A stretch of 64,000 nucleotides of DNA from Escherichia coli (GCF_044324785.1 NZ_CP172127.1); one strand, 5' to 3'. Shown: positions 2,869 through 28,934, counted from the stretch's first letter. The notes: a model not told the origin generated them from the letters alone. Made by a program: numbers and translations.

Positions 2869-3201
2869 TTACGTATTGTCTTTCACCGTCTGGCTTGTGC
2901 CATTGGCTTTAACGGAGGCAATTCCGGTTTCACGAGATTGCGCGGTGGCGTACATCTGGCTGGAGCCGATAATTTGATGATTGGCGGCTTTCAGATTGAA
3001 ATAGAATTTGCCGTTGCTTGCCGTTTTTTTCTCATAGCGTTCTTCTTGCGGGCTGTTGCTACGCACCGACGCGATGCCCTTTTCCGCAGAGGCTTTTGAT
3101 GTATACAGCTCGCTGGTGAGGATAGTCTCACCATTGCCCGCTTTTAGCACAAACCGAAATTGATTATCACTGCTCTTACTGAGTTCAAACCAACCAGCCA
3201 T
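2869..3201 (-). CDS. yegP: UPF0339/DUF1508 protein YegP (110 aa)
   Basis: Translation from ATG 3201 (AAGGAG SD 5 nt upstream) reads MAGWFELSKSSDNQFRFVLKAGNGE..., matching YegP. The track ORF is 13 codons longer via an upstream start. Confidence 0.85.
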   Translation of the reverse strand: MAGWFELSKSSDNQFRFVLKAGNGETILTSELYTSKASAEKGIASVRSNSPQEERYEKKTASNGKFYFNLKAANHQIIGSSQMYATAQSRETGIASVKANGTSQTVKDNT

Positions 3202-3336
3202 AATGACTCCTTGATTGAAATTGCGTATCGAAAACAGCATCTAAAAGGACTGTTTACCGATTAAAGTATGAGCGATTTTCTGGTGCCTGCCAGGGCGAAG
3301 AGATAATGTCAGTTTGCTGACCATGCGTGGAATAAT

Positions 3337-3372
3337 GTTGCCGGATGCGGCGTGAATGCCTTCTCCGGCAGG
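3337..3372. repeat. REP (repetitive extragenic palindrome) element between baeR and yegP
   Basis: Sequence GTTGCCGGATGCGGCGTGAATGCCTTCTCCGGCAGG matches the enterobacterial REP consensus (GCCGGATGCGGCGTGAACGCCTTATCCGGC). Confidence 0.6.
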
Positions 3373-3380: not shown

Positions 3381-4103
3381 TTAAACGATGCGGCAGGCGT
3401 CGGCTTCCCAGCGGTAACCGACGCCGTAAACGGCGCGGATAAATGACTGTTCGGCGTCGAGAGATTCCAGCTTGCGACGCAGGTTTTTAATGTGGCTGTC
3501 GATGGTGCGGTCGGTTACTACGCGGTAGTCGTCATAAAGATGATTGAGCAATTGCTCGCGGGAGAACACTTTTCCTGGTTCATGAGAGAGCGTTTTCAGC
3601 AGACGAAATTCCGCAGGCGTCAGGTCAAGCATTTTACCGCGCCATGAAGCCTGAAAACGACCTTCGTCGATAATCAACGGGCTTTCAGCATCCTGTTGCT
3701 GCAACTCACGCTGCGGTTTGCAACGGCGCAAAATGGTTTTGACGCGCGCTACCACTTCCCGTGGGCTGTACGGTTTGCAGATGTAGTCATCTGCGCCAAT
3801 TTCCAGCCCCAGCAGGCGGTCGATCTCTTCGATTTTTGCTGTCACCATCACGATCGGAATGTCAGAAAAATGACGAATCTCCCGACACAGCGTCAGGCCA
3901 TCGGTACCTGGCAGCATCAGATCGAGCAGGATCAGATCCGGCGGCGACTGGTGAACGTAGGGCAGTACCTGATCGCCGTGGCTGATAAGCGTCGGCGCAT
4001 AGCTCGCAGCACGCAGATAATCAATGAGCAACTGCCCCAGCTTCGGTTCATCTTCCACGATCAAAATACGCGGTGTGTTTTCGTCGATTGGTAACTCGGT
4101 CAT
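3381..4103 (-). CDS. baeR: response regulator BaeR (OmpR family), 240 aa
   Basis: Full-length translation [26 protein letters not shown]... recognised as BaeR. 4-bp overlap with baeS. Confidence 0.95.
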
Positions 4104-5503
4104 ACTTCTCTCTGTAAATCCCGTTCCAGCGGTAACTCTACTGTAATGCTTACCCCGCCAAAAGGCGAATGGGCAGCAATAATGCGGCCATTATGGGCTT
4201 CAACAATGTTCAGGCAAATCGCCAGCCCCAGCCCGGAACCGCCGCTGGCGCGGTTGCGGGAACCTTCGGTGCGATAAAAACGTTCAAACAATTTTTGTAG
4301 CTGATCGTCACTGACGCCCGGCGCGCTGTCAGCAAAGGTCAGGCGCACCGTTTTGTCGTGCTGCTCGGCAGAGATTTTCAGGCTGCCGCCACTGTCAGTG
4401 TAGCGCAGGCTGTTTTCCAGTAAGTTATTGAATAACTGCATTAAACGGTCGCGATCGCCAAATACGGTAATACTGTCTGGCAGGGAAAATTGCAGTTTCA
4501 GGCCACGGCTGGCGAATCGTTCGCGAAATGCGCCGCCCGCCACTTCCAGCAGTGGGATCAAATCTACCGGTGCTTTTTGATAGGCGAGAGCGCCTTCATC
4601 AGACATCGACAACTGATGGAGATCGTCAACCAGTTTGGTCAGTGTACCGACCTCCGCCTGTAAAGACGCCACCGTCTCCGGCGTGAATTTACGCACGCCA
4701 TCCTGAATGGCTTCCAGTTCACCGCGCAGCACCGCTAATGGCGTACGCAGTTCGTGAGAAATATCGGCCATAAAATCGCGCCGCATTTGCTGGTTTTTCT
4801 CCAGCGTGCTGGCAAGCTGGTTGAAGTCTTGCGCCAGTTTGCCCAGTTCATCTTCACTGGTGGGCGTCACGCGGGTTGTGAAATCGCCCGCCGCCAGTTT
4901 GTGCGTGCCGTCCACCAGCCGTTTGACCGGGGCCAACAGACCACGCGCCAGCAGAAAGGTGGCGAGCGCCGCGAGTAACGTTGCCAGGGCGACAATCAGC
5001 CAGCTGGTTTGCCGCTGTTGTTTATCGAAATTGATATCAGTATTGCGGGTCAGTCGCTCAACAGGGGAGGCAATCACCGCACCCACTTCCGCACCGTTGA
5101 CCAGAATGGGTCGCCGTGTACCGTCAGGTGGAATCGGCGCTCGCGGACCAACCAGCACTTTGTTGTTTTGATCAACCACCCAGAACTGAGTACGCCAGCC
5201 GTGTGGTGGCATACCCGGGCCGGGTTTATCTTCCGAATTATCGTGTTCAAATGAGCGCAGGATCTGAAAGACAAAGCGATCATTGTTGCGCAGGAAGCGC
5301 CAGTTGCCATGCTGCGCATACTGCTCGCCAAGCGCATCACTTAACAGTTGTAATCGCTGTTCATTACCATGCTTGATGTAATCAATAAAGCCACGCTCAA
5401 AACTGATACGCACCGCCCAGTGCATACTGATCAGCAAGACAATGCAGGTGGCGAAAATCGCCAGAAACAGTTTACCGGTAATACCGGGTCGCCAGAACTT
5501 CAT
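4100..5503 (-). CDS. baeS: sensor histidine kinase BaeS, 467 aa
   Basis: TM segments, H-box (SHELRTPL) and ATPase domain. Position between mdtD and baeR. Confidence 0.95.
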
Positions 5504-6915
5504 TGCGCGCTCCTTTTTCGCCGCGAAATAGCTACATTTTGATGCGTATCGTTCGGCACTCTGGCAAAGATGAACGCCGGAAGGGCGATGATCAACGCCA
5601 TGCTAAGCCAGGTGTACATAAAGACGGTTTGTGTGGTGCCGCTGTCGATGCTGACATGCTGCGAACCAAAAAGCCCCAGCAACAGCCCGGCGATGGTGAC
5701 GCCGATACTCATCGACAATTGCATAATCATCGACAGCAGACTGTTGCCGCTGCTCGCCAGATTGTCCGGAAGATCTTTCAGCGTCAGGGTGTTCATGGAG
5801 GAGAAACGGGTCGAGTTGACCATCCCTTGTAAAAACAGGACGAACGGCAAAACGTAGTACCAGCCCAGCAGAGCGGTAGTCATAAACAATAGGGTGACCA
5901 GCGACAGACCCAGCGTGGTCGCCACCAGTACCCGACGATAACCAAAGCGATTCACTACCTGTACCACAATTCGCTTCATCCCCATGCTGCCGAGCACCAT
6001 CGGGATCATCATCAGTCCGGCATGAAACGGTGAGAAGCCAAGGCCAATTTGCAGGAAAACCGGCGTCATAAAGGGCAACATGCCGCTACCGATACGTCCG
6101 GCAAAACTCCCCGCCAGGCCCAGCGAAAAGGTACGAGTGCGGAACAGTTTCAGACTGAAAAGAGCGCGGTTGTTATTTCTGGCGTGCAGCAGATAAAGCA
6201 CCAGTGCTACCACGCCAACAGCGACCAGGCCAGTAATCGCCAGCGGCGATAAACCTGTACCTTTACTGCCATCCAGCGCCAGGGTTAATACCGCCATGCC
6301 AACCGCCAGCAATAAAAAGCCGGAAAGATCAAAGCGCCGCGTCTGCATGGTGTAGTTCGGCATCAACATTAGTGTTGCGATCGCACCGATAATCCCCACC
6401 GGAATGTTGATCAAAAAGATCCAGTGCCACGATGCGTACTCCACCAGCAGACCGCCGAGCGCCGGACCCAGCAGCGGACCGACCTGACCGGGCAGTGTGA
6501 CAAAGGTCATCGCCGCCATATATTGCTCGCGCGGTACGATTTTCATCACCGTCAATCTGCCGACCGGCACCATCATCGCACCGCCAACGCCCTGTAACGC
6601 GCGTGCCAGCAACAGTTCGTTTAGCGTGCCGGAAAGCGCGCAAAACAGTGAACCGAGAGTAAACAGTACGATGGCGGTAAAGAAAATATTGCGCACGCCG
6701 ACTTTGTCCGCCAGCCAGCCGCTGGCGGGCAGCATCACCGCCACGGTCAGCACATAAGAGACAATGACCATGTGCATATGCAACGGACTTTCCCCGAGGC
6801 TTTGCGCCATTGAGGGAAGCGCGGTGTTGACGATGGTGGTGTCCAGCGACTGCATAAAGAAGCCGAAAGCCACAATCCACAATTGCCAGCGGGTGCTGTC
6901 GGGAAGATCTGTCAT
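5500..6915 (-). CDS. mdtD: MFS transporter MdtD, 471 aa
   Basis: Hydrophobic multi-TM protein between mdtC and baeS. Overlaps baeS start by 4 bp. Confidence 0.93.
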
Positions 6916-9900
6916 TTACTCGGTTACCGTTTGTTTAGGTTTACGCGAAAAACGCAGCCGCAGACGGTCGAAAAAGAGATACACCACCGGCGTGGTATAC
7001 AGCGTCAGAAGCTGGCTCATTACCAGACCGCCGACAATGGTGATCCCCAGGGGTTGGCGCAGCTCCGAACCGTCACCGCCCGACAATACCAGCGGCAGCG
7101 CGCCAAACAGCGCCGCCAGGGTAGTCATCATAATCGGGCGAAAACGCAGCAGACAGGCCTGGAAAATAGCTTCCTGCGGCGTCAGGTTACCGTGCCGTTG
7201 GGCTTCAAGCGCAAAATCGACCATCATAATGGCGTTTTTCTTCACGATGCCGATTAATAGCATGATCCCTATCAGGGCGATTAGGCTGAACGGGGCATTG
7301 AACAGCTCCAGCGCCAACAGCGCTCCAACGCCCGCCGAGGGCAGGGTGGAGAGAATCGTCAGCGGATGTACGTAACTCTCGTAAAGGATACCCAGCACGA
7401 TATACACCGTGGCGATGGCGGCGATAATCAGGATCACCTGCGAGTTCATCGTCTCCTGGAACACCTGCGCTGTTCCGGCAAAACTGCCGCGCACCGTCGA
7501 AGGCACGCCAAGTTGCGTCATTGCGCGATCGATCGCCGCACTGGCGTCCGAGAGCGATTTTCCGGTCGGCAGGTTAAACGAAATGGTCGAGGCTGCCGAT
7601 AACCCCTGATGATTCACCGACAGCGGAGCATTCGCCGGTTGCCATTTAGCGAAATACGACAGCGGGATCGCTTTTCCTTCGTTATTGATAACGAACATTT
7701 TTTCCAGCGCACTGATGTCCTGGGTATAGCGCGGATCCACTTCCATCACCACTTTATACTGGTTCATCGGCTGGTAAATGGTCGAGATTTGTCGCTGACC
7801 GAAGGCGTTATTTAACAGGCTGTTGGCGGCCTGCACGTCGATTCCCAGCCGTGCCATAGTGTCGCGGTCGTAAACCAGATTCATCTCCGCGCCGTTATCC
7901 TGCTGGTCGGAGTTCACGTCCGCCAGTTCCGGCAATGTCGCCAGTTTTTTGCGGATTTTCGGCTCCCATTCGCGCAGTGCCGCCAGGTCGTCGGACAGCA
8001 ACGTGTACTGATAGCTGGCGTTCGACTGACGTCCGCCAACGCGAATATCCTGTACCGCCATCAGGAACAGATTCGCCCCCGGTTCTTTCGCCAGCTTCAC
8101 CCGCAGACGGTCGATAATTTGCTGCGCCGTTTCGCTGCGTTCGCCGCGTGGCTTGAGGGTGATAAACATCATCCCGCTGTTCACCCGCGAACCGCCGGTA
8201 AATCCGGTGACATTATCCACTGCCGGATCGTCACGGATAATTTTCATGAAATCCTGCAACTTACCGCGCATCGCCTGAAACGAAATACTCTGATCCGCCT
8301 GTATCCCGCCCATCAACACGCCGGTGTCCTGCTCCGGGAAGAAGGTTTTCGGGATCGAGATATATAGCCAGATATTCAGCGCAATGGTGCCAAGCAGCAC
8401 CACGCCCACCAGACGGGTATGATTGAGCACCCATTTCAGTGACTTGCCGTAGCTTTGTTGCAGGGCTACCAACATGCGACCAAAACCACGCAGACGCTTT
8501 TGCTCGCGCGGCTTGCTGGCTTTCAGCATCCAGCCGCACATCATCGGCGTTAGCGTCAGGGAAACCAGCAACGAAATCCCAATGGCGACAGAAAGCGTCA
8601 CGGCAAATTCGCGTAACAGGCGGCCCGGCAATCCGCCCATCAACAGTAGCGGCAGGAACACCGCCACCAGTGACAGACTCATTGATAGCACCGTAAAGCC
8701 GACTTCACGGGTGCCTTGCAGCGCGGCCTGTAGCGGTTTCATCCCCGCTTCCAGATGACGGGCAATGTTTTCCAGCACCACGATGGCGTCATCCACCACA
8801 AAGCCAGTGGCGATGGTGAGCGCCATTAACGACAGGTTATTGAGACTGAATCCGCACAGGTACATCGCCGCAAAAGTACCAATCAGCGAAACCGGCACCG
8901 CAACGGCGGGAATAATAGTGGCGCGACCCGAGCGTAGGAATAAAAAGACCACCAGAATCACCAGCGCCACCGAGATAATCAACGTTTGCTCGACTTCCTC
9001 CAGCGAGGCGCGAATGGTGGGGGAGCGATCCTGAGCAATTTGCAGATCAATCGCCGCCGGAATGGTCTCCTGCAACTCCGGTAATTTTGCCCGGATGCTG
9101 TCAACCGTCTGGATAATATTGGCTTCCGGCAGCTTGCGGATCATCAGCAAAATAGCCGGTTTGGCGTTGGTCATCCCGGCGTTGCGCACATCCTGCACTG
9201 AGTCGGTCACCGTCGCCACATCGCCCAGACGAACCGCGCCGCCGTTGTTGTAATGAATAATTAACGGCTGATATTCAGCGGCGGTTTTTAGCTCATCATT
9301 GGTCTGGATCTGCCAGCGGTGAGTGCTATCTTCCAGCGCCCCCTGCGGTTTACGCACGTTGGCATTGCTGATGGCAGTGCGAACATCGTCCAGCGACACG
9401 CCCTGATTAAACAGCGCCTGCGGATTCAGCCCGACGCGCACGGCGGGCAGTGAGCTGCCGCCAACATCGACATCACCGACACCGTCGATTTGCGAAATCG
9501 TCGGAGCCAGCTGCGTCGAGGCGAAATCGTACAGTTCACCCTGCGAATAAGTATCGGATGTCAGCGTGAGGATCATAATTGGCGCATCCGACGGGTTCGC
9601 TTTGCGATAGGTCGGACGGCTGGGCATCCCACTGGGCAGCAAACTTTGTGCAGCGTTGATCGCCGCCTGCACATCACGCGCTGCGCCGTTGATATCCCGG
9701 TCAAAATCAAACTGCAAAATAATGCGCGTGCTGCCGAGCGAACTACTGGAGGTCATTTCACTAACCCCGGCAATGCGCCCAAGTGAGCGTTCCAGCGGTG
9801 TGGCAACGGAAGACGCCATTGTCTCCGGCGATGCACCGGGCAGCGAGGCGCTGACCATAATCACCGGAAAATCGACCTGTGGCAGCGGGGCGACCGGCAG

Positions 9901-9993
9901 CATACGGAAGCCCAGTATGCCGCACAGGGTAATGGCGACCGACAGTAAAATCGTCGCCACCGGGCGGTAAATGAAGAGGGCAAAAAACTTCAC
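6916..9993 (-). CDS. mdtC: RND multidrug efflux transporter MdtC, 1025 aa
   Basis: RND/AcrB-like 12-TM architecture with large periplasmic loops. Abuts mdtB and mdtD. Confidence 0.95.
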
Positions 9994-12900
9994 TTACGCC
10001 TCCTCTTCATGACGAGCAAAGCGGCTTTTGGTCCACAATGCCAGACGGTCGAATAGCAGATAAATCACCGGCGTGGTAAACAGCGTCAGCACCTGGCTGA
10101 CAATCAGACCGCCGACCATGCCGATCCCTAACGGACGACGCAGTTCCGCGCCGACCCCGGTACTCAACATCAGCGGCAGCGCGCCAAGCAGAGCCGCCAG
10201 GGTGGTCATCAGGATCGGACGAAAACGCAACAGACAAGCCTGGTAGATTGCATCGCGTGGCGACATGCCTTGCTCGCGCTCAGCAGCCAGCGCGAAGTCG
10301 ATCATCATGATGGCGTTCTTCTTCACGATACCGATCAGCAAAATAATGCCGATAATCGCAATCACATCCAGCTCGCTACCGGCAATCAGTAGCGCCAGCA
10401 GTGCGCCGACCCCTGCGGTGGGTAGCGTCGAGAGAATGGTGATCGGGTGAATAAAGCTCTCGTACAGAATGCCGAGCACGATATACATCGCCACCACCGC
10501 CGCGACAATCAGCCAGACAGTGCTGCCAAGCGCCGACTGGAAGGCGAGGGTGCTGCCCTGGAACTGCGTGGTGATATCCACTGGCAGATTCAGCGTCTTC
10601 TCGGTGTCCATAATCGCCTGCACCGCATCGCCCAGCGAATAGTTATCCGGCACGTTAAAGGAGATGGTCGTTACCGGGAACTGATCCAGATGGTTGATGG
10701 AAAGCGGCGCAAAACGCTGCTCAATTTTGGCAATTGAGCTTAACGGCACCACGCCACCGTCGCTGCTGGTCAGGCGAATGGTATCCAGCGCCGCGAGGCC
10801 TGGGGTATTTTCGGTGTTGTGTTCCAGCACTACGCGATACTGGTTAGCCTGAGTATAAATAGTGGAAATCAGCCGCTGACCAAACGCGTTGTACAGGGCG
10901 TTATCGACATCCGCCATGCTGATCCCCAGACGGCTGGCGCTGTCGCGATCAACGTTGACATACGCCACCAGCCCTTGGTCCTGCCAGTCGCTGGAGACAT
11001 CAGAAAGCTGTGGCAGTTGCTGGAGTTTTTCCATCAACTGTGGCACCCAGGTACTGAGCGCATCCAGTGACGTGGCCTGTAAGGTAAACTGGTACTGGGT
11101 GCGGCTGACCTGAGTATCAATAGTCAGGTCCTGCGTTGGTTGCAGGAAGAGATCGACGCCCGGCACTTTATCTACTGCCGTTTGCAAACGAGCGATGACT
11201 TTTTGCACCCGATCATCACGTTCATCCAACGGTTTGAGGTTGATCTGTAAACGCGCACTGTTCAGCGACGGGTTAGTGCCATCAACGCCAACAAATGAGG
11301 TCAGGCTTTGCACTGCCGGATCCTGCAAAATCACATCCGCGACCTGGCGTTGCCGCTGGGCCATATTGGCAAAGGAGCTGGATTGCGGTGCCTGCAAAGT
11401 GCCCTGAATAATGCCGTTGTCCTGTACCGGGAAGAAACCTTTCGGAATGAACACCCACAACAGCACGCTAAGCAGCAGCGTGCTGAGCGCCACGCTTAAG
11501 GTCAGCCACGGATGATTCAGCACTTTCGCCAGTCCCTGACCATAGGCGGCGATTATCCTGTCGAACATTTTTTCCGAGGCACGGGAGAAGCGGTTCTGTT
11601 TACGCAGCGACTCCTGGCTGAGCATCCGCGCACACATCATCGGTGTCAGGGTCAGCGACACCACGGCTGAGATCAAAATCGCGACTGCCAGAGTAATAGC
11701 AAATTCGCGGAACAGTCGCCCGACGATATCGCCCATAAATAGCAGTGGGATCAACACTGCAATCAGTGAGAAGGTCAGCGAGATAATGGTAAAGCCGATT
11801 TCACCCGCGCCCTTGAGCGCCGCCGCCAGCGGTTTTTCGCCTTTTTCGATATAGCGGGAAATGTTTTCGATTACCACGATGGCGTCATCGACCACGAATC
11901 CGGTGGCGATAGTTAACGCCATCAGCGTCAGGTTATTGATTGAAAAATCGAGAAACACCATAACCGCAAAGGTGCCAATTAACGACAGCGGCACTGCGAC
12001 GCCAGGAATGATGGTCGCCGGAATATTGCGCAAAAACAGGTAGATAATCATGACTACCAGCGCGATAGCCATCATCAGTTCAAACTGGGTATCGTCGACC
12101 GATGCGCGGATGTTGGTGGTGCGGTCAGAAAGCACCGTCACTTTTACCGATTTCGGCAAACTCTCGGTGAGTTGTGGCAGCATCTGCCGGATGCTGTCGG
12201 CGGTGGAGATAATGTTAGCACCGGGCTGGCGCTGAACATTCATCACAATGGCCTGTTCTTTGTTCGCCCACGCGCCGAGCCAGCTGTTTTCTGCTCCTTG
12301 CTCTACGGTTGCGACATCGCCCAGACGAATCGGCGCGCCGTTCTGGTAGGCGATGATCAGCTGGCGATACTCTTCGGCGGATTGCATCTGGTCGTTCGCG
12401 GAAAGTGTGACCGCACGAGAAGGGCCGTCGAGGCTACCTTTTGCCGAGTTAACGTTAGCGCCGGTAATAGCGGTGCGCACGGTTTCGCTGGTCAGGCCGA
12501 GGGCGGCAATCGCCTGGGCGTTAAGTTTGACGCGAACAGCCGGACGCTGGCCGCCGGAAAGCGTCACCAGGCCGACGCCGGAAATCTGCGAGATTTTCTG
12601 CGCGACGCGGGTTTCCACCATATCTTCCACTTGCGTCATTGGCATGGCGGTTGAGGTGACGGCGAGCGTCATGATTGGTGGATCTGCCGGGTTCACTTTG
12701 CTGTAAACCGGCGGGTTAGGCAGATCGCCCGGCAACAAGTTGGTCGCAGCGTTAATCGCGGCCTGCACCTCCTGCTCGGCGACATCGAGCGGTAATGTTA
12801 GCTGGAACTGCAAAGTGATAACTGACGCACCGCCGGAACTTTGCGACGACATCTGTTTCAGGCCGGACATCTGCCCGAACTGGCGTTCGAGCGGCGCGGT

Positions 12901-13116
12901 AACGGCAGAGGTCATGACATCCGGGCTCGCACCTGGGTAGAGCGTGACCACCTGAATGGTCGGATAGTCCACTTCCGGCAGCGCCGAAACGGGCAGGGCG
13001 CGATAACCGATAATCCCGGCGAGTAAGATCGCCACCATCAGCAGCGTGGTGGCGACAGGACGCATAATAAACAGGCGCGACGGGCCGCCTGTGCTGCTAG
13101 GAGGTAACACCTGCAT
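9994..13116 (-). CDS. mdtB: RND multidrug efflux transporter MdtB, 1040 aa
   Basis: RND family paralog directly upstream of mdtC. Confidence 0.95.
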
Positions 13117-14363
13117 CAGGAGCGTGCTCCTTTTTTCGCGTATTCGCGGCTGGTGGCTTTCTCTTCCGGAGTGGTGGCGCTCTGGGCTTCCACCACTTCC
13201 ACTTTCGCCCCTTCGGTCAGGCGATCAATGCCGTCTGTCACCACGCGGTCGCCCGCAGAAATACCTGCGCGGATCACCACTTTCTGACTGTCCTGAATGC
13301 CCGGCGTCACCAGATGTTTGCTGACCTTGTTTTCGCTATTCAGCACCCAGACAAAATGGCCTTCATTGCCCATTTGCAGGGCGGCGGTGGGGATCACCAC
13401 GGCGTTTTGTTCGGTGTCGACTAACATACGCGCGTTAACAAACTGATTGGGAAACAGCGCATCCTCCTGATTATTAAAGCGTGCTTTCACTTTAATCGTA
13501 CCGGTAGTGGCATCGATTTGGTTATCGAGACTTAACAGCGTGCCTTCACTTAATTTCTTCGAGTTGGTGCGATCCCAGGCTTCAACAACCAGCGGTTTTC
13601 CGGCTTTTTGCGCCTGTACTACGGTAGTGATATCGCTTTCCGGCAGGGTAAAGAGCAAATCGATAGGATGCGTCTGGGTGATCACCACAATCCCGGTGGT
13701 ATCACCACTGGAGATTTGGTTACCAACATCAACCTGCTTGAGACCAACGCGACCATCGACTGGTGCGGTGATGCGGCTCCAGTCGAGTTGCAGCTGCGCG
13801 CTGGCGACGCTTGCTTCATCAGCCTTAATGGTGCCTTCTGTTTCACTGACCAGCGCTTGTTGGGCATCCAGTTCCTGACGAGATACGAGATTGGTTTTTA
13901 CCAGTTGTTGATAACGCGCCAGGTCACGGCGGGCGTTGGCAAGCGTGGCTTTATCTTTTGCCAGTTGGCCCTGGGCTTGTGCTAATGCAACTTTGAACTG
14001 GCTGGGGTCAATTTCTGCCAATAAATCGCCTGCTTTGACCTGCTGGCCTTCCTGGAAATGTAACGCCATCAGTTGACCGTCCACGCGGCTGCGCACCGTA
14101 ACGGTATTAGCGGCGGTAATGGTGCCAAGCCCGGTGAGATAACGTGGCACAGCTTGTTCTACGGCAGTCGCCGCCTGAACCGGGGCTAATGGGCCGGCAC
14201 GCATACCACGGCGACCACCCGCTGGCGATTGCTGCGCTTGTTTGGTCGCCCCTGGGGCTGCACTCTGGGAGTCATTGCGGCCTTGCCAGAACCAGAATGC
14301 GGCGATGGCGGCGATAACCACCACGATTACGATTACCCAACGGGATTTATAACTGCCTTTCAT
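13116..14363 (-). CDS. mdtA: RND efflux membrane fusion protein MdtA (415 aa from ATG 14363)
   Basis: Translation from ATG 14363 reads [28 protein letters not shown]..., matching MdtA. The track ORF (to 14510) is an upstream extension. 1-bp overlap with mdtB. Confidence 0.9.
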
Positions 14364-14416
14364 CGTTAAGAGTTTCTCTTCCTGAAACGTTTCGCGGAAT
14401 GATACTAGTGTAGCCA

Positions 14417-14434
14417 GCCAATAAGGGAGAAAAA
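14417..14434 (-). promoter_or_regulatory. putative BaeR binding box in the mdtA promoter
   Basis: Minus-strand sequence TTTTTCTCCCTTATTGGC lies ~55-70 bp upstream of the mdtA ATG and matches the BaeR box consensus as I recall it (TTTTTCTCCATDATTGGC) at 16 of 18 positions. Confidence 0.5.
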
Positions 14435-14589
14435 TGGAGGAATTATGAAACACTGTCGGGAATCGTCTGAATGACGGGCACATTTGCGAGCACGCATCCA
14501 GTAATAACACATGAAACTATTTTATCTACGCGTTAGCGATAGACTGCTTGCATGGCGAAAGGAGGTAAGCCGACGATTTCAGCGGGACG

Positions 14590-14740
14590 CTGAAACGGGA
14601 AAGCCCCTCCCGAGGAAGGGGCCATAAATAAGGAAAGGGTCATGATGAAGCTACTCATCATCGTGGTGCTCTTAGTGATTAGCTACCCAGCATACTAAGA
14701 CTACCAGGGCGGGGGAAACCCCGCTCTACCCTCACTCCTG
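14590..14740 (-). ncRNA. sib: Sib antisense sRNA (antitoxin of ibs copy 1); boundaries approximate
   Basis: Minus-strand promoter-like TTGACA (14770..14765) and a CATACT -10 downstream of the ibs stop. Transcript would be fully antisense to ibs. Ends not determined. Confidence 0.45.
14642..14698 (+). CDS. ibs: Ibs-family small hydrophobic toxin (type I TA), copy 1: MMKLLIIVVLLVISYPAY
   Basis: 18-codon ORF after an AAGGAAAGGG SD. Sequence matches the Ibs toxin peptide family. Confidence 0.75.
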   Translation: MMKLLIIVVLLVISYPAY

Positions 14741-14917
14741 AAAGTATGCCTTCACGATAAGATTGTCAATCTGCAGGCTTTGCAGTCTGCGATCCTGCCA
14801 GCAAATATTCTTTGCGAGACGTTACGCAATAATCACATGTGAAACTATTTTATCCGCAAGTCAGCGATAGACTGCATTCAGGGCGAAAGGAGGTAAGCCG
14901 ATGATTTCAGCGGGACG

Positions 14918-15068
14918 CTGAAACGGGAAAGCCCCTCCCGAGGAAGGGGCCTTAAATAAGGAAAGGGTCATGATGAAGTGGATCATCATCGTGGTGCTCT
15001 TAGTCATAAGCTTCCCGGCTTACTAAGACTACCAGGGCGGGGGAACCCCCGCTCTACCCTCACTCCTG
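14918..15068 (-). ncRNA. sib: Sib antisense sRNA (copy 2); boundaries approximate
   Basis: Placed by repeat periodicity (~328 bp) relative to copy 1. Confidence 0.4.
14970..15026 (+). CDS. ibs: Ibs-family small hydrophobic toxin, copy 2: MMKWIIIVVLLVISFPAY
   Basis: Second repeat unit, same architecture. Confidence 0.75.
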   Translation: MMKWIIIVVLLVISFPAY

Positions 15069-15249
15069 AAAGTATGCCTTCACGATAAGATTGTCAATCT
15101 GCAGGCTTTGCAGTCTGCGATCCTGCCAGCAAATATTCTTTGCGAGTCGTTACGCAATAATCACAGAGGAAACTATTTTGTTCACGCGTTAGCGATAGAC
15201 TGCATTCAGGGCGAAAGGAGGTAAGCCGACGATTTCAGCGGGACGCTGA

Positions 15250-15400
15250 AACGGGAAACCCTCTCCCGGAGAAGAGGGCTTTTAATAAGGAAAGGGTTAT
15301 GATGAAGCACGTCATCATACTGGTGATACTCTTAGTGATTAGCTTCCAGGCTTACTAAGAACACCAGGGGGAGGGGGAAACCTCTCCCTAACCCTCACTC
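15250..15400 (-). ncRNA. sib: Sib antisense sRNA (copy 3); boundaries approximate
   Basis: Placed by repeat periodicity; a TTGACA-like box (TGTCAA on + strand) at 15427-15432. Confidence 0.4.
15299..15358 (+). CDS. ibs: Ibs-family small hydrophobic toxin, copy 3: MMKHVIILVILLVISFQAY
   Basis: Third repeat unit, same architecture. Confidence 0.75.
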   Translation: MMKHVIILVILLVISFQAY

Positions 15401-15578
15401 CTGAAATTATGTCACTCCGCCCTTAGTGTCAATCGACGGCTCTCCGTTCTTGCGAGGCGAATAGCAAAATTTTCTGCGCCGCCGGGCCTAATTCTGAAAG
15501 TTTCTTCGTTTGCTCTTATTTCATTGTTGCGGTCGGTATGATACCGGGCCTCAATAATTCTCTAAGAAAGGATTTCTT

Positions 15579-16996: not shown

Positions 16997-17060
16997 ACAT
17001 CGCATGGCGGTTGAAGACAACAGTTCAACCGCCAGTTTAAGCAATCAATATAATGGCTGG

Positions 17061-17522
17061 TTAGCGAACTAATTTTGCTCTTAGCTCGTCGGCTTCTTCT
17101 TTTGGATAGGTGACCAATAAAGGATCAATGGTATAACCGCCGTAAATTTTATCCCCGCGTGTATACATCCAGTCTGAAATATCTTCTTTCTTGATTTTCC
17201 ACTCCTGACCATATTCTACGTTTGTAACAATACCAGGGTCATTGCTTATTACGCCAATAAACATGCCGTTAGAATAAGTGACATCCGTGAGCCAGAAATG
17301 CTCGGTTCTTCCGTGATCGGTTATCGGGGCTTTGACTGCGAAAGTATCGGCATCTTTTTTATTCATAACCTCGATGAATTTATCAGTTTCTTTCCGCGCA
17401 TGTTGAATGGCGTCAGACATCGCTTGTTTATCATAACCTCCCGTCACTAACGTATCCGAAACTTCACTAAAGCCCGCGGTAGTAAAAAATAGCAGACTCA
17501 ACATAAGTAATATCTTTTTCAT
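17061..17522 (-). CDS. yegJ: periplasmic DUF2314-like protein YegJ, 153 aa
   Basis: Signal-peptide-like N-terminus MKKILLMLSLLFFTTAGFS. Convergent with yegK. Confidence 0.85.
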   Translation of the reverse strand: MKKILLMLSLLFFTTAGFSEVSDTLVTGGYDKQAMSDAIQHARKETDKFIEVMNKKDADTFAVKAPITDHGRTEHFWLTDVTYSNGMFIGVISNDPGIVTNVEYGQEWKIKKEDISDWMYTRGDKIYGGYTIDPLLVTYPKEEADELRAKLVR

Positions 17523-17722
17523 TTTTTCTCCAGAATCCCTGTGTAGTAAAAGTTAGCAATAAACCTGTGGAAGTGAATCATTATCAGGTTGGAATTGAAT
17601 TGTATCCTGATGAAATTGCATTATCATTTTTATTCTTGAGTGGGACTCTTCCCATATAGAAATAATTATAATAGGCAGTGTTATTATTCATTGAAATATA
17701 ATATGACTGCCCTTGAAACATT

Positions 17723-19669
17723 ATGAAGACAAATATAAAAGTATTTACATCGACAGGTGAATTGACCACTCTCGGGCGTGAACTGGGCAAAGGTGGCGAA
17801 GGCGCGGTTTATGATATCGAGGAGTTAGTCGATAGCGTCGCCAAGATTTATCACACGCCGCCACCCGCCTTAAAACAGGACAAACTTGCCTTTATGGCTG
17901 CGACAGCTGATGCGCAGTTGCTGAATTATGTCGCCTGGCCGCAGGCAACGCTTCACGGTGGACGAGGCGGAAAAGTAATCGGTTTTATGATGCCAAAAGT
18001 TTCTGGTAAAGAACCGATTCATATGATCTATAGCCCGGCACATCGTCGTCAACGTTACCCTCATTGTGCGTGGGATTTTCTACTCTATGTTGCGCGCAAT
18101 ATTGCTTCATCTTTTGCTACGGTTCACGAGCACGGGCATGTCGTGGGTGACGTAAACCAGAACAGCTTTATGGTAGGCCGTGACAGCAAAGTGGTGTTGA
18201 TTGATAGCGACTCCTTTCAGATTAACGCCAATGGCACACTGCATTTATGCGAAGTCGGCGTGTCGCATTTTACGCCGCCAGAGCTGCAAACCTTGCCATC
18301 ATTTGTCGGCTTTGAACGCACCGCGAATCACGATAATTTTGGCCTTGCGTTGCTGATTTTTCACGTCTTGTTTGGTGGTCGGCATCCTTATTCCGGTGTA
18401 CCGCTTATCTCTGATGCGGGTAATGCACTGGAGACGGATATTGCCCATTTCCGTTATGCCTACGCATCAGATAATCAGCGACGTGGTTTAAAACCGCCGC
18501 CACGATCTATTCCGCTGTCGATGTTACCAGGTGATGTTGAAGCCATGTTTCAGCAGGCATTCACGGAAAGTGGCGTGGCAACCGGGCGTCCGACGGCAAA
18601 AGCGTGGGTAGCGGCACTTGATTCTCTACGCCAACAGTTAAAGAAATGTACCGTTTCGGCAATGCATGTTTACCCCGGTCATTTGACTGACTGCCCGTGG
18701 TGTGCGCTGGATAATCAAGGCGTTATCTATTTTATTGATCTCGGCGAAGAGGTCATTACCACCAGCGGTGATTTTGTGCTGGCGAAAGTCTGGGCGATGG
18801 TGATGGCGTCAGTTGCACCACCAGCATTGCAACTGCCATTACCCGATCATTTCCAACCGACTGGCAGGCCGCTTCCTTTAGGCCTGTTACGGCGTGAATA
18901 CATCATTCTGATTGAGATCGGACTGTCAGCGTTATCGCTGTTGCTTTGCGGCCTTCAGGCAGAACCGCGTTATATTATTTTGGTTCCTGTGCTGGCGGCT
19001 ATCTGGATTATTGGCAGCCTGACAAGCAAAGCGTACAAAGCAGAAATCCAGCAACGCCGTGAGGCGTTTAATCGCGCGAAAATGGACTATGACCATTTAG
19101 TCAGCCAGATCCAACGGTTGGGCGGGCTGGAAGGTTTTATCGCCAAACGGACGATGCTCGAAAAAATGAAGGACGAAATTCTTGGGTTACCGGAAGAAGA
19201 GAAACGCGCTCTGGCAGCACTTCAGGACACCGCAAGGGAACGGCAGAAGCAGAAGTTTCTGGAGGGATTTTTTATTGATGTTGCCTCTATTCCCGGCGTT
19301 GGCCCTGCGCGTAAAGCGGCGTTACGGTCCTTTGGTATTGAAACGGCGGCAGACGTTACCCGACGGAGCGTTAAGCAAGTTAGAGGTTTTGGTGATCATC
19401 TGACCCAGGCGGTTATCGACTGGAAAGCAAGTTGCGAACGCCGTTTTGTGTTCAGGCCGAATGAAGCGGTAACGCCAGCAGACAGACAAGCGGTAATGGC
19501 AAAAATGGCCGCCAAACGACATCGGCTGGAATCGACGTTGACTGTCGGCGCGACAGAGTTGCAGCGATTCCGCCTTCATGCTCCAGCACGGACCATGCCG
19601 TTGATGGAACCTTTACGTCAGGCGGCAGAAAAACTGGCTCAGGCGCAGGCTGATTTAAGCCGTTGCTGA
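17723..19669 (+). CDS. yegI: Hanks-type (eukaryotic-like) Ser/Thr protein kinase YegI, 648 aa
   Basis: Glycine loop GKGGEGAVY, VAK lysine, catalytic-loop variant HVVGDVNQNS, DSDS variant of DFG. Predicted TM segment, then a C-terminal helical domain. Confidence 0.9.
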   Translation: MKTNIKVFTSTGELTTLGRELGKGGEGAVYDIEELVDSVAKIYHTPPPALKQDKLAFMAATADAQLLNYVAWPQATLHGGRGGKVIGFMMPKVSGKEPIHMIYSPAHRRQRYPHCAWDFLLYVARNIASSFATVHEHGHVVGDVNQNSFMVGRDSKVVLIDSDSFQINANGTLHLCEVGVSHFTPPELQTLPSFVGFERTANHDNFGLALLIFHVLFGGRHPYSGVPLISDAGNALETDIAHFRYAYASDNQRRGLKPPPRSIPLSMLPGDVEAMFQQAFTESGVATGRPTAKAWVAALDSLRQQLKKCTVSAMHVYPGHLTDCPWCALDNQGVIYFIDLGEEVITTSGDFVLAKVWAMVMASVAPPALQLPLPDHFQPTGRPLPLGLLRREYIILIEIGLSALSLLLCGLQAEPRYIILVPVLAAIWIIGSLTSKAYKAEIQQRREAFNRAKMDYDHLVSQIQRLGGLEGFIAKRTMLEKMKDEILGLPEEEKRALAALQDTARERQKQKFLEGFFIDVASIPGVGPARKAALRSFGIETAADVTRRSVKQVRGFGDHLTQAVIDWKASCERRFVFRPNEAVTPADRQAVMAKMAAKRHRLESTLTVGATELQRFRLHAPARTMPLMEPLRQAAEKLAQAQADLSRC

Positions 19670-19681
19670 GCAAGTTTTCAA

Positions 19682-21034
19682 TTAACGAAACACCACTTCC
19701 GCCCAGCGTGCCAGCCCGGCGGTGACGGAGCCAAAGTCATCGCCACCTGCAATCGGAATGCCCGGCAACTGTTCTGTCAGCGCTTTTTTAATCAGCGGTG
19801 AACGGGCGCTACCGCCGGTCAGATAGATAACATCCGGTTTTTCCTGGGCGTTATCCAGCGCCAGTTGCACCTGTTCCAGAATCCGCGCCAGCGGCTGGCT
19901 GAGGGCGCTTTCCAGCCCTTGTCGGCTAATCAGCGTTGCCAATTCATCGCTGATAAACGGCAGTGAGGCGCGGGTTTCCGCTACGCTTGAAAGCGCAATT
20001 TTGCTCTCTTCTGCGCTGCGCACCAGGCGATAGCTTAAACGCTGACGCCAGACTTTCTGTAACAGGGCCACTTTCTCCGGTTCGCGGGCATCGCGTACCA
20101 GATCGTTAAGCAGACGACCGTTGGCACTACTGTAGAAATCACTTTGCGCAGGGACGTCGTTGATGGCAACCGCATTCCACCACGGCAGGATCGGCAGGGC
20201 GATGCCTTTTTCGGTTTCGCCACCCATGCCAAGTAACGGCATCAGGTTTTTAAACGCCAGCGCGATATCCAGATCGTTACCACCAATACGGCAACCACTG
20301 TGACCCAGCAGGCTGGCTTCACGATCGAGACGCGAACGCCACTGCGGCCCCATCAGCAGCAATGAACAGTCAGTCGTACCACCGCCGATATCCACCACCA
20401 GCACCCGTTTTTCTTCCTGCAAGGTGGCTTCGTAATCCAGCCCAGCCGCGACCGGCTCGTACTGGAATACCACGTCCCTGAATCCGGCACGCTTCGCCGC
20501 GCGTTCCAGAATCCCTTGCGCCTGGGCGTTTGCTTCATCGCCGCCCAGCCCCTGGAAGTTGATCGGGCGACCAATCACCGCCTGAGTAATCGCTTCTGGC
20601 AGCTGCGCCTGCGCCTGCTGGCGAATGTGCAACATCATTGCGCAGACCAGATCCTCAAACAGCGCTACCTGCTGCGGTTTTAAGCCGCTGGCACCGAGGA
20701 ACGATTTTGGTGATTTCACAAACCACACTTCTTCTGGATCATCAATGTACTGTGCCAGTGAGGAAAGACCGAACTGCACGCTTTTCGCCGTAACATCGAT
20801 ATCTTCTTCGCGGTTATAACGAATCGCCCGACGCAACAGCGCCTGCGTTTCATCGTCGTCTGCCGGAACATCATGATGGCGGTACAGCCATTCGCTTACC
20901 GCTTCACGCGTTGGCGCGCAAAGCATTGAAGGCAGCAGCGTGCTGTCGTTTTCCATTTTTAGCAAGTGCGGTTTACCGTCACGCATGACCGCCACTGAAC
21001 AGTTTGCTGTACCGTAATCAAAACCAATAAACAC
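19682..21034 (-). CDS. yegD: Hsp70/actin-fold chaperone-like protein YegD (450 aa from GTG 21034; in-frame ATG alternative at 21097)
   Basis: N-terminal FIGFDYGTANCSVAV and DIGGGTTD motifs characteristic of the Hsp70/DnaK ATPase fold. Confidence 0.85.
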   Translation of the reverse strand: MFIGFDYGTANCSVAVMRDGKPHLLKMENDSTLLPSMLCAPTREAVSEWLYRHHDVPADDDETQALLRRAIRYNREEDIDVTAKSVQFGLSSLAQYIDDPEEVWFVKSPKSFLGASGLKPQQVALFEDLVCAMMLHIRQQAQAQLPEAITQAVIGRPINFQGLGGDEANAQAQGILERAAKRAGFRDVVFQYEPVAAGLDYEATLQEEKRVLVVDIGGGTTDCSLLLMGPQWRSRLDREASLLGHSGCRIGGNDLDIALAFKNLMPLLGMGGETEKGIALPILPWWNAVAINDVPAQSDFYSSANGRLLNDLVRDAREPEKVALLQKVWRQRLSYRLVRSAEESKIALSSVAETRASLPFISDELATLISRQGLESALSQPLARILEQVQLALDNAQEKPDVIYLTGGSARSPLIKKALTEQLPGIPIAGGDDFGSVTAGLARWAEVVFR

Positions 21035-21167
21035 GAAATAATCCCCATGCCGGTGAAGAAGGGGCGTGACTTTAGCGAAATGTTGCCGTCGCGACAACCG
21101 GAATATGAAAGCAAAGCGTAGCGTCTGAATAACGTTTATGCTGAAAGCGGATTAACAAGGAGATGCG

Positions 21168-22025
21168 ATGTATACCCTGAACTGGCAGCCGCCATATGAC
21201 TGGTCGTGGATGTTGGGATTTCTCGCCGCCCGTGCGGTGAGCGGTGTTGAAACGGTTGCGGACGATTATTATGCCCGTAGTCTGGAGGTGGGCGAATATC
21301 GCGGCGTGGTGACTGCTATTCCGGATATAGCCAGCCATACTCTGCACATAAATTTAAGTGCAGGTTTAGAACCTGTTGCCGCTGAGTGTCTGGCGAAAAT
21401 GAGCCGCCAGTTTGATCTGCAATGTCACCCGCAGATTGTTAACGGTGCGTTGGGCAAGTTAGGCGCGGCGCGGCCCGGATTGCGTTTACCCGGCAGTGTT
21501 GATGCTTTTGAGCAGGGCGTGCGGGCGATTTTAGGCCAACTGGTGAGCGTGGCGATGGCGGCAAAATTGACCGCCAGAGTGGCACAGCTTTATGGCGAAC
21601 GGCTGGATGATTTTCCGGACTATGTCTGCTTCCCCACGCCTCAGCGGCTGGCTGCAGCCGACCCGCAGGCATTAAAAGCGTTAGGTATGCCGTTGAAACG
21701 GGCAGAGGCACTGATTCATCTGGCAAATGCGGCGCTGGAGGGCACCTTACCAATGACAATTCCGGGCGACGTAGAACAAGCGATGAAAACGCTGCAAACT
21801 TTTCCGGGTATCGGGCGCTGGACGGCGAATTATTTCGCCTTACGTGGCTGGCAGGCGAAAGATGTTTTCCTGCCGGATGATTATCTGATTAAACAGCGAT
21901 TTCCGGGAATGACACCGGCACAAATCCGCCGTTATGCCGAACGCTGGAAGCCCTGGCGTTCTTATGCGCTGTTGCATATCTGGTATACGGAAGGCTGGCA
22001 ACCAGACGGAACGGACGAATTGTAG
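21168..22025 (+). CDS. alkA: 3-methyladenine DNA glycosylase II AlkA, 285 aa
   Basis: Translation MYTLNWQPPYDWSWMLGFLAARAVSGVETV... recognised as AlkA. Confidence 0.93.
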   Translation: MYTLNWQPPYDWSWMLGFLAARAVSGVETVADDYYARSLEVGEYRGVVTAIPDIASHTLHINLSAGLEPVAAECLAKMSRQFDLQCHPQIVNGALGKLGAARPGLRLPGSVDAFEQGVRAILGQLVSVAMAAKLTARVAQLYGERLDDFPDYVCFPTPQRLAAADPQALKALGMPLKRAEALIHLANAALEGTLPMTIPGDVEQAMKTLQTFPGIGRWTANYFALRGWQAKDVFLPDDYLIKQRFPGMTPAQIRRYAERWKPWRSYALLHIWYTEGWQPDGTDEL

Positions 22026-22062
22026 GCCTGATACGCCGCATCAGTCGATGGGGAAGCACGCC

Positions 22063-25380: not shown

Positions 25381-25697
25381 TACCGCTTTATCCGCAAGAC
25401 CAGGTCGCCAGTATTCGTTTCTGTGTTTATGCTAGTACAAAAGTTTTACATTTTATATGCGAATTGCTCATAAAGTGACGTAAAGGCGGATAATTTGCGC
25501 AACTGCGTATAACAATTTTTACCTTGTATAAAACTGATCAACGTAATTTGCCACCGGGAATTCTTCGTCAACAATTAACTCTGAGCGCGCGGCAACGCTA
25601 TTCGACTGGTATCAGGCGGATGAAATCCCTATAATTGCCGCGTTTGGCGCTTCGTCGCCCCCTTCCTAACATCCAGGTTAATCAGGTCGCTAAATAT

Positions 25698-26339: not shown

Positions 26340-26430
26340 GCTTGATAAATTGTGTACCGTTCAGTGATAACCTGGTATGCCCTTGACGTAATTGGCGTTA
26401 AGGGAGTGATGCACGAAAGGAGAAAATGCC

Positions 26431-27012: not shown

Positions 27013-27033
27013 TTCAGGCCCATTGAGGATACC

Positions 27034-28887: not shown

Positions 28888-28898
28888 GACAAGTTATG

Positions 28899-28934
28899 CA
28901 GATGGCGGCGTCAATTTGTCGCCATCTGTATTTA
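28899..28934. terminator. hairpin between convergent asmA and the higA-like gene (likely bidirectional terminator)
   Basis: CAGATGGCG-(loop)-CGCCATCTG inverted repeat followed by TATTTAT. Confidence 0.5.

Follow-up and report, generated by a model that had tools for sequence, protein, structure and literature searches.

The window analyzed here, a 64,000-nucleotide stretch of Escherichia coli DNA (GCF_044324785.1, NZ_CP172127.1), carries six genes on the minus strand in the order mdtA-mdtB-mdtC-mdtD-baeS-baeR. The first, mdtA (13116 to 14363, ATG start), encodes an RND periplasmic adaptor of 415 amino acids (NF008589, 720 bits versus a cut-off of 391), a call with which PGAP agrees. Two RND permeases follow, encoded by mdtB (9994 to 13116; 1040 amino acids; NF007798, 2241 bits versus 1584, spanning model positions 1 to 1039 of 1040) and by mdtC, which begins with GTG (6916 to 9993; 1025 amino acids; NF007905, 2210 bits versus 1774). 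The MFS transporter gene mdtD, or iceT (5500 to 6915; 471 amino acids; NF007799, 969 bits versus 426), precedes the genes for the sensor histidine kinase BaeS (4100 to 5503; 467 amino acids; NF007837, 932 bits versus 603) and the response regulator BaeR (3381 to 4103; 240 amino acids; NF007982, 448 bits versus 380). All six proteins score above their NCBIfam equivalog or subfamily cut-offs. The start codons are backed both by end-to-end matches of each protein to its own NCBIfam model and by PGAP coordinates that are identical in three E. coli strains, where gene order and lengths match as well. A longer mdtA reading frame from GTG 14510 was rejected; the K-12 transcription start sites (TSSs) of mdtA lie downstream of that codon, and the family model aligns from ATG 14363. 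Antisense and alternative-frame reading frames of at least 100 amino acids gave no family match above the Pfam cut-off and are thus treated as spurious.

The region is the already known mdtABCD-baeSR efflux-pump and envelope-stress operon, which 5,420 of 5,426 complete E. coli genomes carry with the same annotation and which is nothing new in itself. Its K-12 counterpart is b2074-b2079, listed as a unit by RegulonDB/EcoCyc (PMC3799227, citing Baranova & Nikaido 2002 and Nagakubo et al. 2002); the window agrees with it in the order and lengths of the genes, in the geometry of all five junctions, in the BaeR box, and in the sequence of the internal promoter discussed below. The original prediction rightly recognized six genes and fairly called the operon ordinary, although its range, 4100 to 14363, contains just the first 4 bases of baeR and leaves out the body of that gene; the true unit is 3381 to 14363. 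Relative to a K-12-like strain, the operon is about 96.8% identical in nucleotide sequence (98.0% for the nearest complete genome), whereas the two do not differ between -70 and +13 relative to the start of baeR; the window also differs in having three upstream sib/ibs copies rather than two and a 2-gene insertion between yegP and yegQ.

The junctions are as tight as claimed, with gaps of -1, 0, 0, -4, and -4 nt according to both the ORF list and direct reading of the sequence. At mdtA/mdtB, the mdtA stop (TGA) and the mdtB start (ATG) share base 13116 within TGATG (-1). At mdtB/mdtC (9993/9994), TAA is followed directly by GTG (0), and at mdtC/mdtD (6915/6916), TAA is followed directly by ATG (0), while mdtD/baeS (5500 to 5503) and baeS/baeR (4100 to 4103) each overlap in an ATGA (-4). 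All five thus fall between -4 and 0, the overlap/spacer class of termination-reinitiation pairs. Given that spacings of -8 to +6 nt are found in 24% of codirectional gene pairs of E. coli (PMC10666635, Huber et al. 2023), five such junctions in succession would be expected with a probability of about 8e-4, if the junctions are independent.

Does this geometry serve expression? In a comparison of 80 Enterobacteriaceae loci, with denominators that vary by junction, three of the junctions are essentially invariant across genera: mdtA/mdtB is -1 in 71/71, mdtB/mdtC is 0 in 73/74, and baeS/baeR is -4 in 80/80. The other two vary, with the mdtC/mdtD gap running from -4 to +56 nt and the mdtD/baeS gap taking values of -4, -1, 0, and +3, plus one call of -32. 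Invariant mdtA/mdtB, mdtB/mdtC, and baeS/baeR junctions beside variable mdtD flanks make tight translational coupling plausible, as judged from sequence; because the geometry of the mdtD-flanking junctions is not conserved, selection may not be acting on coupling at those positions. Folding of the RNA at the junctions is unremarkable (z scores of -1.5 to +1.0) and is uninformative. A small minus-strand hairpin at 13118 to 13131 (AGGAG-CACG-CUCCU, predicted at -6 kcal/mol) would pair the mdtB SD sequence with the last mdtA codons and is present in most loci; since it is missing from a sizeable minority of them, we keep it as a weak possibility for a coupling element.

These same comparative data mark mdtD as the variable member of the operon. 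The gene is degraded or absent in three lineages (L017, L021, and L066, with a deletion remnant or none), and both of its flanking junctions differ between genera, which shows mdtD to be dispensable and evolutionarily labile. The Erwinia amylovora locus (PMC4107485) fits with these mdtD-less or remnant loci: there too, baeSR comes after mdtABC, whose promoter is bound by BaeR, but mdtD/iceT is lacking and baeSR is described as an operon in its own right.

Transcription of the operon as a unit would begin at a BaeR-regulated mdtA promoter, and for this promoter the original prediction is borne out. The minus-strand BaeR binding region (14417 to 14444) consists of a box, TTTTTCTCCCTTATTGGC, at 14417 to 14434 and a second TTCCTCCA repeat 10 nt upstream. 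The box lies 53 nt upstream of mdtA, fits the Nishino consensus (as quoted in PMC3799227) at 17/18 positions, and is the sole consensus match in the 64-kb window, where 0.02 would be expected by chance; a related box lies 51 to 66 nt upstream of the mdtA ATG in 61/68 loci. Placing K-12 coordinates on the window through shared sequence locates the mdtA start sites at 14393 to 14401 on the minus strand, just downstream of the BaeR box and homologous to K-12 TSSs 2153986 and 2153978, which precede the ATG by 30 and 38 nt (SMRT-Cappable-seq, PMC6131387, Supplementary Data 2). In K-12, a BaeR ChIP-exo peak is found upstream of mdtA, and the induced expression of baeS depends on BaeR (-4.6 log2 under ethanol when baeR is deleted; PMC7657598). 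The basal baeS level, in contrast, is independent of BaeR in the same study.

A second promoter is hidden in the 3' end of baeS. Across about 80 loci, the block at 4139 to 4171 shows the strongest synonymous-site constraint of the operon, the lowest of 3,253 ten-codon windows (Z of -6.6), with 11 consecutive codons at z of -1.2 or below. Two independent published K-12 datasets place a primary 5' end at this site, inside baeS and 30 to 31 nt upstream of baeR, agreeing to within one base. SMRT-Cappable-seq reports TSS 2164245 for operon b2079-b2080, with reads that run through baeR and yegP (PMC6131387), and the second dataset reports TSS 2162270 (older coordinates; 18 reads, 30-nt 5' UTR). The K-12 sequence equals that of the window at this promoter, and the reported flanking sequence maps to 4133 to 4171. 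The minus-strand promoter (4133 to 4171) comprises a -35-like TTCGCC (4164 to 4169), an 18-nt spacer, a -10 element TACAGT (4140 to 4145), and a TSS at 4133/4134; 79/79 sequences keep the -10 bases T-12, A-11, and T-7 unchanged. Thus, baeR is separately driven by a conserved promoter within baeS, with 5' ends mapped in K-12. Its hexamers and spacer match the sigma-70 consensus at 7/12 positions, which is under the scan threshold, and the consensus scan missed the site. That scan gave only one minus-strand hit inside the operon, at 4190 to 4217, which was dropped since it is not conserved in other genera. On the speculative control-point reading given below, the poor -35 hexamer, together with constraint on all 33 nt from -38 to -6 relative to the TSS, would suggest a bound factor. 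We found no focused study or description of the internal baeR promoter in the searchable literature; the mdtABCD-baeSR locus does not appear in the Cappable-seq 2016 supplements, and the part of the Kim 2012 supplements covered here has no rows for K. pneumoniae TSSs of the orthologues.

Could the constraint instead reflect an RNA element of the long mRNA? The block at 4139 to 4171 might form a CGCC-UUUU-GGCG hairpin, or it might tune the coupled translation of baeR as a site for ribosome standby or for processing, with the 5' ends being secondary. RNAalifold does predict a small conserved hairpin, and the block sits upstream of a start with a weak SD sequence. We nevertheless think this explanation unlikely. 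No covariation was found in the block, where three TCC variants break a pair with no compensatory change, and the fold is not unusual (z of -0.79). Both 5'-end methods enrich primary, triphosphate ends, the SMRT reads from the site traverse baeR and yegP, and the constraint covers exactly -38 to -6, ending 5 nt upstream of the TSS, all of which speak for a promoter.

A similarly improbable reading concerns the overlaps themselves: they may be the result of genome compaction or mutational stop-codon drift, with no role in expression, while genes with good SD sequences initiate independently. In support of this idea, strong SD sequences precede mdtB, mdtC, and baeS (that of mdtC, GAGGAGG, lies inside the 3' end of mdtB), spacings of -4 and -1 occur most often across the genome (PMC10666635), and the junctions around mdtD do drift. 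Drift alone sits poorly with three junctions that stay invariant among genera whose BaeS proteins diverge by as much as about 27% in sequence, or with the weak SD sequences of mdtD and baeR. Moreover, experiments with other E. coli gene pairs show that such junction geometry gives strongly distance-dependent termination-reinitiation coupling (PMC10666635), and the complex of MdtB with MdtC has a fixed 2:1 ratio (PMC4107485). We prefer the reading in which the overlaps probably couple translation. As with the termination-reinitiation pairs described by Huber et al. (2019, 2023; PMC6728339, PMC10666635), the ATGA, TGATG, and zero-nucleotide junctions belong to the -8 to +6 class, and the genes encode members of one complex (MdtA/B/C) or partners (BaeS/BaeR); the mdt/bae genes differ in that three downstream genes have strong SD sequences of their own and baeR has its own promoter.

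What do the transcripts look like? Consensus promoters are not enriched in the operon (5 found versus 8.0 ± 2.8 expected), nor are intrinsic terminators (18 terminator-like sites versus 13.5 ± 3.7 in shuffles), and K-12 Term-seq shows no 3' end from the mdtA promoter as far as the terminator of yegP. A Rho termination region has been reported in K-12 mdtA at 2154517 (Rho score of 7.3, p of 2e-23; PMC7815308 Supplementary file 2), homologous to minus-strand position 13862 of the window; the upstream counting window for this score takes in the 3' end of sibB, such that sibB reads may have inflated it, and the C>G skew around the region is mild and not decisive. SMRT-Cappable-seq did not capture the full 10.3-kb transcript, and the mdtA TSS yields mdtA alone, labeled "ShorterEnd" (PMC6131387), which may simply reflect read length and low expression. 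Downstream of the baeR stop lies a REP-like hairpin (3330 to 3370, minus strand; fold z score of -2.95) with a subthreshold match to the REP-derived naRNA4, the only Rfam signal nearby; searches at the gathering threshold and at E values of up to 1 returned nothing within the operon. Since it has no U-tract, this hairpin is not a canonical terminator. The first canonical one downstream of baeR is an intrinsic terminator at about 2835 to 2860, following yegP (2869 to 3201) within the minus-strand segment 2835 to 3201, and is probably the 3' end of the baeR-yegP transcript; in K-12, a Term-seq 3' end is found after yegP. The gene yegP was considered as a conserved seventh member and rejected, as it adjoins baeR downstream in just 19/77 loci.

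Because a conserved promoter inside baeS drives baeR, mdtABCD-baeSR is not one simple transcript. The six-gene operon with its mdtA promoter stands; the single transcript of the original prediction is not supported in that form, given the published K-12 TSS in baeS, the Rho region in mdtA, and a baeR transcript that enters yegP, and internal promoters and terminators of this kind are what the prediction itself had named as evidence against it. The strictest version, in which the mdtA promoter acts alone with no internal signals and all six products come from the BaeR-induced mRNA by sequential coupled translation, is the least likely of the readings and is already contradicted for K-12. In its favor are the tight, conserved junctions, the lack of enrichment for consensus-type promoters and terminators, and the six-gene unit of RegulonDB. 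Against it, the database also lists a separate b2078-b2079 unit, the TSS inside baeS recurs in two independent primary-5'-end datasets at the operon's top synonymous-constraint signal, basal baeS is BaeR independent, and Rho termination is reported in mdtA.

In total, we propose a mechanism that we regard as likely as a whole, in which a long BaeR-induced mRNA, coupling, an internal baeR promoter, and early Rho termination act together, with the K-12 transcript data carried over to the present strain on the basis of shared sequence. The operon's products are an RND efflux pump, MdtABC (adaptor MdtA plus an MdtB2C heterotrimer), an MFS transporter, MdtD/IceT, and a two-component system for envelope stress, BaeS/BaeR. 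Without induction, distal expression in K-12 would be held low by Rho-dependent termination inside mdtA, near the start of the operon. Upon induction, phosphorylated BaeR would bind its tandem box, which overlaps the -35 region at the mdtA promoter, and thereby induce the long polycistronic mRNA. At the stop/start overlaps (-1, 0, 0, -4, and -4), terminating ribosomes would reinitiate, or the next start would be unmasked, probably tying the synthesis of neighboring products together and limiting untranslated gaps on which Rho could load. In this model, the weak conserved promoter in the last 70 nt of baeS yields a short baeR(-yegP) transcript, such that BaeR supply would be independent of transcribing and translating 10 kb upstream and BaeR could exceed BaeS. 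Both translational coupling and the physiological role of the internal promoter are parts of this model that we infer.

SMRT-Cappable-seq places the start of about 30% of defined E. coli operons inside another operon (PMC6131387), and the recX promoter inside recA of Mycobacterium tuberculosis is an example of an internal promoter (PMC3062782). As in other cases in which an internal promoter uncouples a distal gene, the baeR promoter lies inside the upstream coding sequence and gives a suboperon. It differs in that baeR is the response regulator of a kinase-first pair and in that the promoter is synonymously conserved across Enterobacteriaceae. We speculate, tentatively and at somewhat less than even confidence, that it is a conserved, separately regulated control of basal BaeR and of the BaeR:BaeS ratio, independent of the efflux genes, across the family.

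In practice, closely packed junctions should not be taken to mean a single transcript. With the baeR promoter inside baeS, a baeS knockout that deletes the last ~70 nt also removes the baeR promoter. By design, Keio-type deletions would lose it likewise. The same would apply to a near-complete internal baeS deletion (PMC13209484). Such a loss can confound the separation of sensor from regulator phenotypes when efflux-mediated resistance is studied; if the control-point reading is true, baeS deletions in common use take away the promoter that belongs to baeR. The internal promoter also gives a simple account of how a kinase-first two-component pair could make more regulator than kinase.

The six genes all lie on the minus strand, and the ORF table and the strand itself, read directly, agree in placing baeR at 3381-4103, baeS at 4100-5503, mdtD at 5500-6915, mdtC at 6916-9993 (with a GTG start), mdtB at 9994-13116, and mdtA at 13116-14363. 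On the mRNA strand, mdtA and mdtB share base 13116 (...TCC TGA TG), mdtB/mdtC (TAA GTG) and mdtC/mdtD (TAA ATG) abut with a gap of zero, and mdtD/baeS and baeS/baeR each overlap by 4 nt (A TGA). The overlaps and zero gaps of the original prediction are therefore all correct, and only its range is amiss: a start at 4100 takes in just 4 bases of baeR despite the six genes named. All six proteins score above the curated cut-offs of specific NCBIfam models (BaeR, 448 bits against 380; BaeS, 932 against 603; MdtD, 969 against 426; MdtC, 2210 against 1774; MdtB, 2241 against 1584; MdtA, 720 against 391). Each aligns from about residue 1 across the full length of its own model, and gene lengths and junctions are identical in the NCBI annotation of three E. 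coli strains; thus, the start codons are more than a longest-ORF choice. Of the complete E. coli genomes, 5,420 of 5,426 carry the 10.5-kb stretch at a coverage of at least 80%, and its annotation there is always mdtABCD-baeSR. The locus is a member of this already known operon family, with all testable defining features of the family found here, and the verdict of "ordinary" is borne out.

How unusual is such packing? Among 2,987 co-directional E. coli gene pairs, 24% lie at -8 to +6 nt (Huber et al. 2023, PMC10666635), a background from which five such junctions in succession have a chance of ~8e-4 if independent; the packing is thus typical of an operon, not accidental. We compared 80 loci, one genome per species across the Enterobacteriaceae (BaeS 73-98% identical), in which the six genes were placed by tblastn with start/stop refinement. 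The gap is -1 at mdtA/mdtB in 71/71 loci, 0 at mdtB/mdtC in 73/74, and -4 at baeS/baeR in 80/80. On either side of mdtD the junction is labile, as the spread of gaps attests: mdtC/mdtD is at 0 (27 loci), -4 (18), +1 to +4 (22), -1 (2), or 20-56 (4), and mdtD/baeS at -4 (52 loci), -1 (16), +3 (7), 0 (2), or -32 (1). In the representatives of Salmonella enterica subsp. arizonae (locus L017, 9471-10000) and Intestinirhabdus alba (L021, 9844-10000), mdtD is an in-frame internal-deletion remnant that keeps both gene ends and the baeS Shine-Dalgarno (SD) sequence, and a Pluralibacter MAG (L066, 4800-4938) lacks the gene; the mdtC-baeS interval in these loci is 139-530 nt. These cases agree with Erwinia amylovora, where mdtABC and baeSR are present and mdtD is missing (PMC4107485). 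Taken together, the labile junctions and the remnants or loss of mdtD indicate a conserved core of mdtABC plus baeSR, with mdtD as a dispensable passenger.

Three genes have a strong SD sequence inside the coding sequence that precedes them, namely mdtB (AAGGAG, median duplex -7.9 kcal/mol), mdtC (GAGGAGG, -12.0 kcal/mol), and baeS (AAGGAG, -8.2 kcal/mol), and those of mdtA, mdtD, and baeR are weak (about -3 to -3.6 kcal/mol). An SD sequestered in the upstream 3' end and opened by the terminating ribosome is a classic arrangement, and the mdtB SD is predicted to be able to pair with CUCCU of the last mdtA codons (13118-13131, -6 kcal/mol); this hairpin is missing in a sizeable minority of the comparison loci, and no junction RNA fold is unusual relative to shuffles. 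Translational coupling at the junctions would be a well-founded reading of their geometry and of what has been published from experiments with other gene pairs of E. coli (PMC10666635). As a side observation, the mdtC start and its SD seem to trade off (9994-10010 and homologous sites in the comparison loci L002-L081, with kinship ignored): GTG occurs mostly with GAGGAGG, and ATG (Citrobacter and others) mostly with the weaker GAGGAAG.

Is the operon, then, a single transcript from a BaeR-regulated mdtA promoter, as the original prediction suggested? The BaeR box consensus, TTTTTCTCCATDATTGGC (Nishino et al. 2005, as quoted in PMC3799227), has a single match in the 64-kb window (0.02 expected by chance): it occupies 14417-14434, departs from the consensus at one position, and stands 53 nt before the mdtA ATG. 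The TTCCTCCA repeat recurs 10 nt farther upstream, and for other genera this second copy gives the best match, at a distance that is kept (51-66 nt in 61/68 loci). The mdtA start sites in SMRT-Cappable-seq, K-12 2153978 and 2153986, map to window 14401 and 14393, and reads from them fully cover mdtA only (PMC6131387), which may be an effect of read length and low expression. Deletion of baeR lowers baeS by 4.6 log2 under ethanol and by 0.4, not significantly, without stress (PMC7657598); thus, induced transcription through baeS is BaeR dependent and basal transcription is not. A Rho termination region is listed inside mdtA (K-12 2154517, window 13862; Adams et al. 2021, PMC7815308), downstream of which bicyclomycin raises reads from 20 to 139, with a Rho score of 7.3 (p 2e-23) whose 800-nt upstream counting window takes in the very abundant sibB 3' end (PMC7815308). 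In uninduced cells, Rho restricts how much transcription reaches the distal operon. The single transcript therefore stands only in part: the BaeR box and BaeR-dependent induction of baeS favor it, whereas this Rho region and a baeR TSS inside baeS do not. The Term-seq tables show no 3' end from the mdtA promoter to the yegP terminator (PMC7815308).

The internal promoter emerges from a synonymous-constraint scan of per-gene codon alignments (69-80 loci), measured as codon entropy at amino-acid-conserved positions, normalised per amino acid and averaged over ten-codon windows. The lowest of 3,253 windows, also by empirical rank, is baeS codons 445-455 (4139-4171; Z -6.6 versus random draws), where eleven consecutive codons are almost frozen; a second constrained stretch lies at 4103-4129. 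Several of the frozen codons (e.g., TCG, CCT, GGG, ACA, and GTA) are not known to be preferred in E. coli. An RNA-structure reading of the block has no covariation support. What explains the block is published K-12 TSS data: SMRT-Cappable-seq of full-length primary transcripts (NC_000913.3) lists a "novel" operon b2079|b2080 (baeR-yegP) starting at 2164245 (PMC6131387, Supplementary Data 2), and 5' RACE-seq of primary mRNA (NC_000913.2) places a TSS at 2162270 (18 reads; 30-nt 5' UTR for baeR) and reports its upstream sequence (Kim et al. 2012, PMC3415461). The two positions differ by one nucleotide (window 4133/4134, minus strand); the flanking sequence of Kim et al. maps exactly onto 4133-4171, and between -70 and +13 relative to the start of baeR the window does not differ from a K-12-like sequence. 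On the minus strand, a -10 hexamer, TACAGT (4140-4145), stands 18 nt from a -35-like hexamer, TTCGCC (4164-4169), and 79 distinct sequences all share T-12, A-11, and T-7; the constraint runs from -38 to -6, ending 5 nt short of the TSS. We consider it very probable that baeR is served by a conserved promoter of its own within baeS. The TSS itself is already in two public supplementary tables, and our literature search found no paper discussing it; the cross-genus conservation at synonymous sites, judged from aligned sequences, appears to be a new but modest observation as far as we have checked. Separately, the octamer GAGTTACC occurs twice on the minus strand, 41 nt apart, at 4131-4138 (containing the TSS) and 4090-4097 (baeR codons 3-5); both copies encode Glu-Leu-Pro with the same codons, conserved across genera, and the duplication may be a coincidence.

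A consensus scan, which is unable to exclude weak or factor-dependent signals, gave no excess of promoter-like (5 versus 8.0 +/- 2.8) or terminator-like (18 versus 13.5 +/- 3.7) sites in the operon. Two more start sites appear in Kim et al. 2012 (PMC3415461): a weak one (6 reads) within mdtA, at window 13466 (minus strand) and 350 nt before mdtB, where the synonymous-constraint scan saw no matching signal, and a separate one for yegP. Further windows of low synonymous variation (Z -4.0 to -4.8) in mdtB (10297-10326, 11413-11442, and 11728-11757, the last overlapping a terminator-like hairpin at 11742-11760) and mdtC (9121-9150 and 8773-8802) have no TSS in the K-12 tables examined. Directly after the baeR stop lies a REP-like palindrome/hairpin (3330-3370, minus strand; fold z -2.95, sub-threshold naRNA4 match, no U-tract), which may lend the 3' end stability or reduce read-through into yegP. 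Not until after yegP does a canonical terminator occur; yegP itself is found 3' of baeR in only 19/77 loci and is thus a local addition outside the conserved unit. Antisense or alternative-frame ORFs of at least 100 aa within the operon had no Pfam match above cut-off, and an Rfam search found nothing inside it.

Three Sib antitoxin RNAs lie upstream of mdtA on its strand, in three tandem Sib/ibs type I toxin-antitoxin copies (14627-15432, ~328 nt apart; Sib RNAs minus, ibs ORFs plus) that end ~264 nt upstream of the mdtA ATG; with two copies in a K-12-like strain, three in N3, and four in AVS0093, copy number varies within E. coli. In K-12 Term-seq, sibB read-through ends 119 nt upstream of mdtA. 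Between yegP and yegQ (710-2746), two genes absent from the K-12-like and AVS0093 genomes, a 201-aa ORF (710-1315, plus; no Pfam or PADLOC match) and a 466-aa HEAT-repeat protein (1346-2746, minus; weak PADLOC HEAT-ARM_XIII hit, E 1.6e-7), could form a small accessory or defence island. Two JUMPstart elements (31635-31673 and 56933-56971) and an algC RNA motif (46060-46109), all on the plus strand, presumably mark the wca (colanic-acid) cluster and the O-antigen cluster, both downstream of the annotated dgcE-yegD-asmA region. The operon (3381-14363) is itself unusually divergent in E. coli: the closest of 5,426 complete genomes matches it at 98.0%, identity to a K-12-like genome is ~96.8%, and the 90-95% identity band holds 1,023 records versus only 6 for the neighbouring 14 kb (17000-31000), which points to allelic lineages of old standing or to recombination close to the colanic-acid/O-antigen region.

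We posit a mechanism in which BaeR~P would activate mdtAp via a box overlapping the -35 region, and ribosomes on the long mRNA would pass from one gene to the next wherever stop and start overlap or abut. Such a hand-over would tie the output of the pump subunits and BaeS together (the MdtB2C complex has a fixed 2:1 ratio; PMC4107485) and would leave Rho without untranslated gaps. The internal promoter would supply BaeR independently of the 10-kb path; it may offer a kinase-first pair a simple means of keeping its regulator in excess and would maintain a basal BaeR pool for autoinduction.
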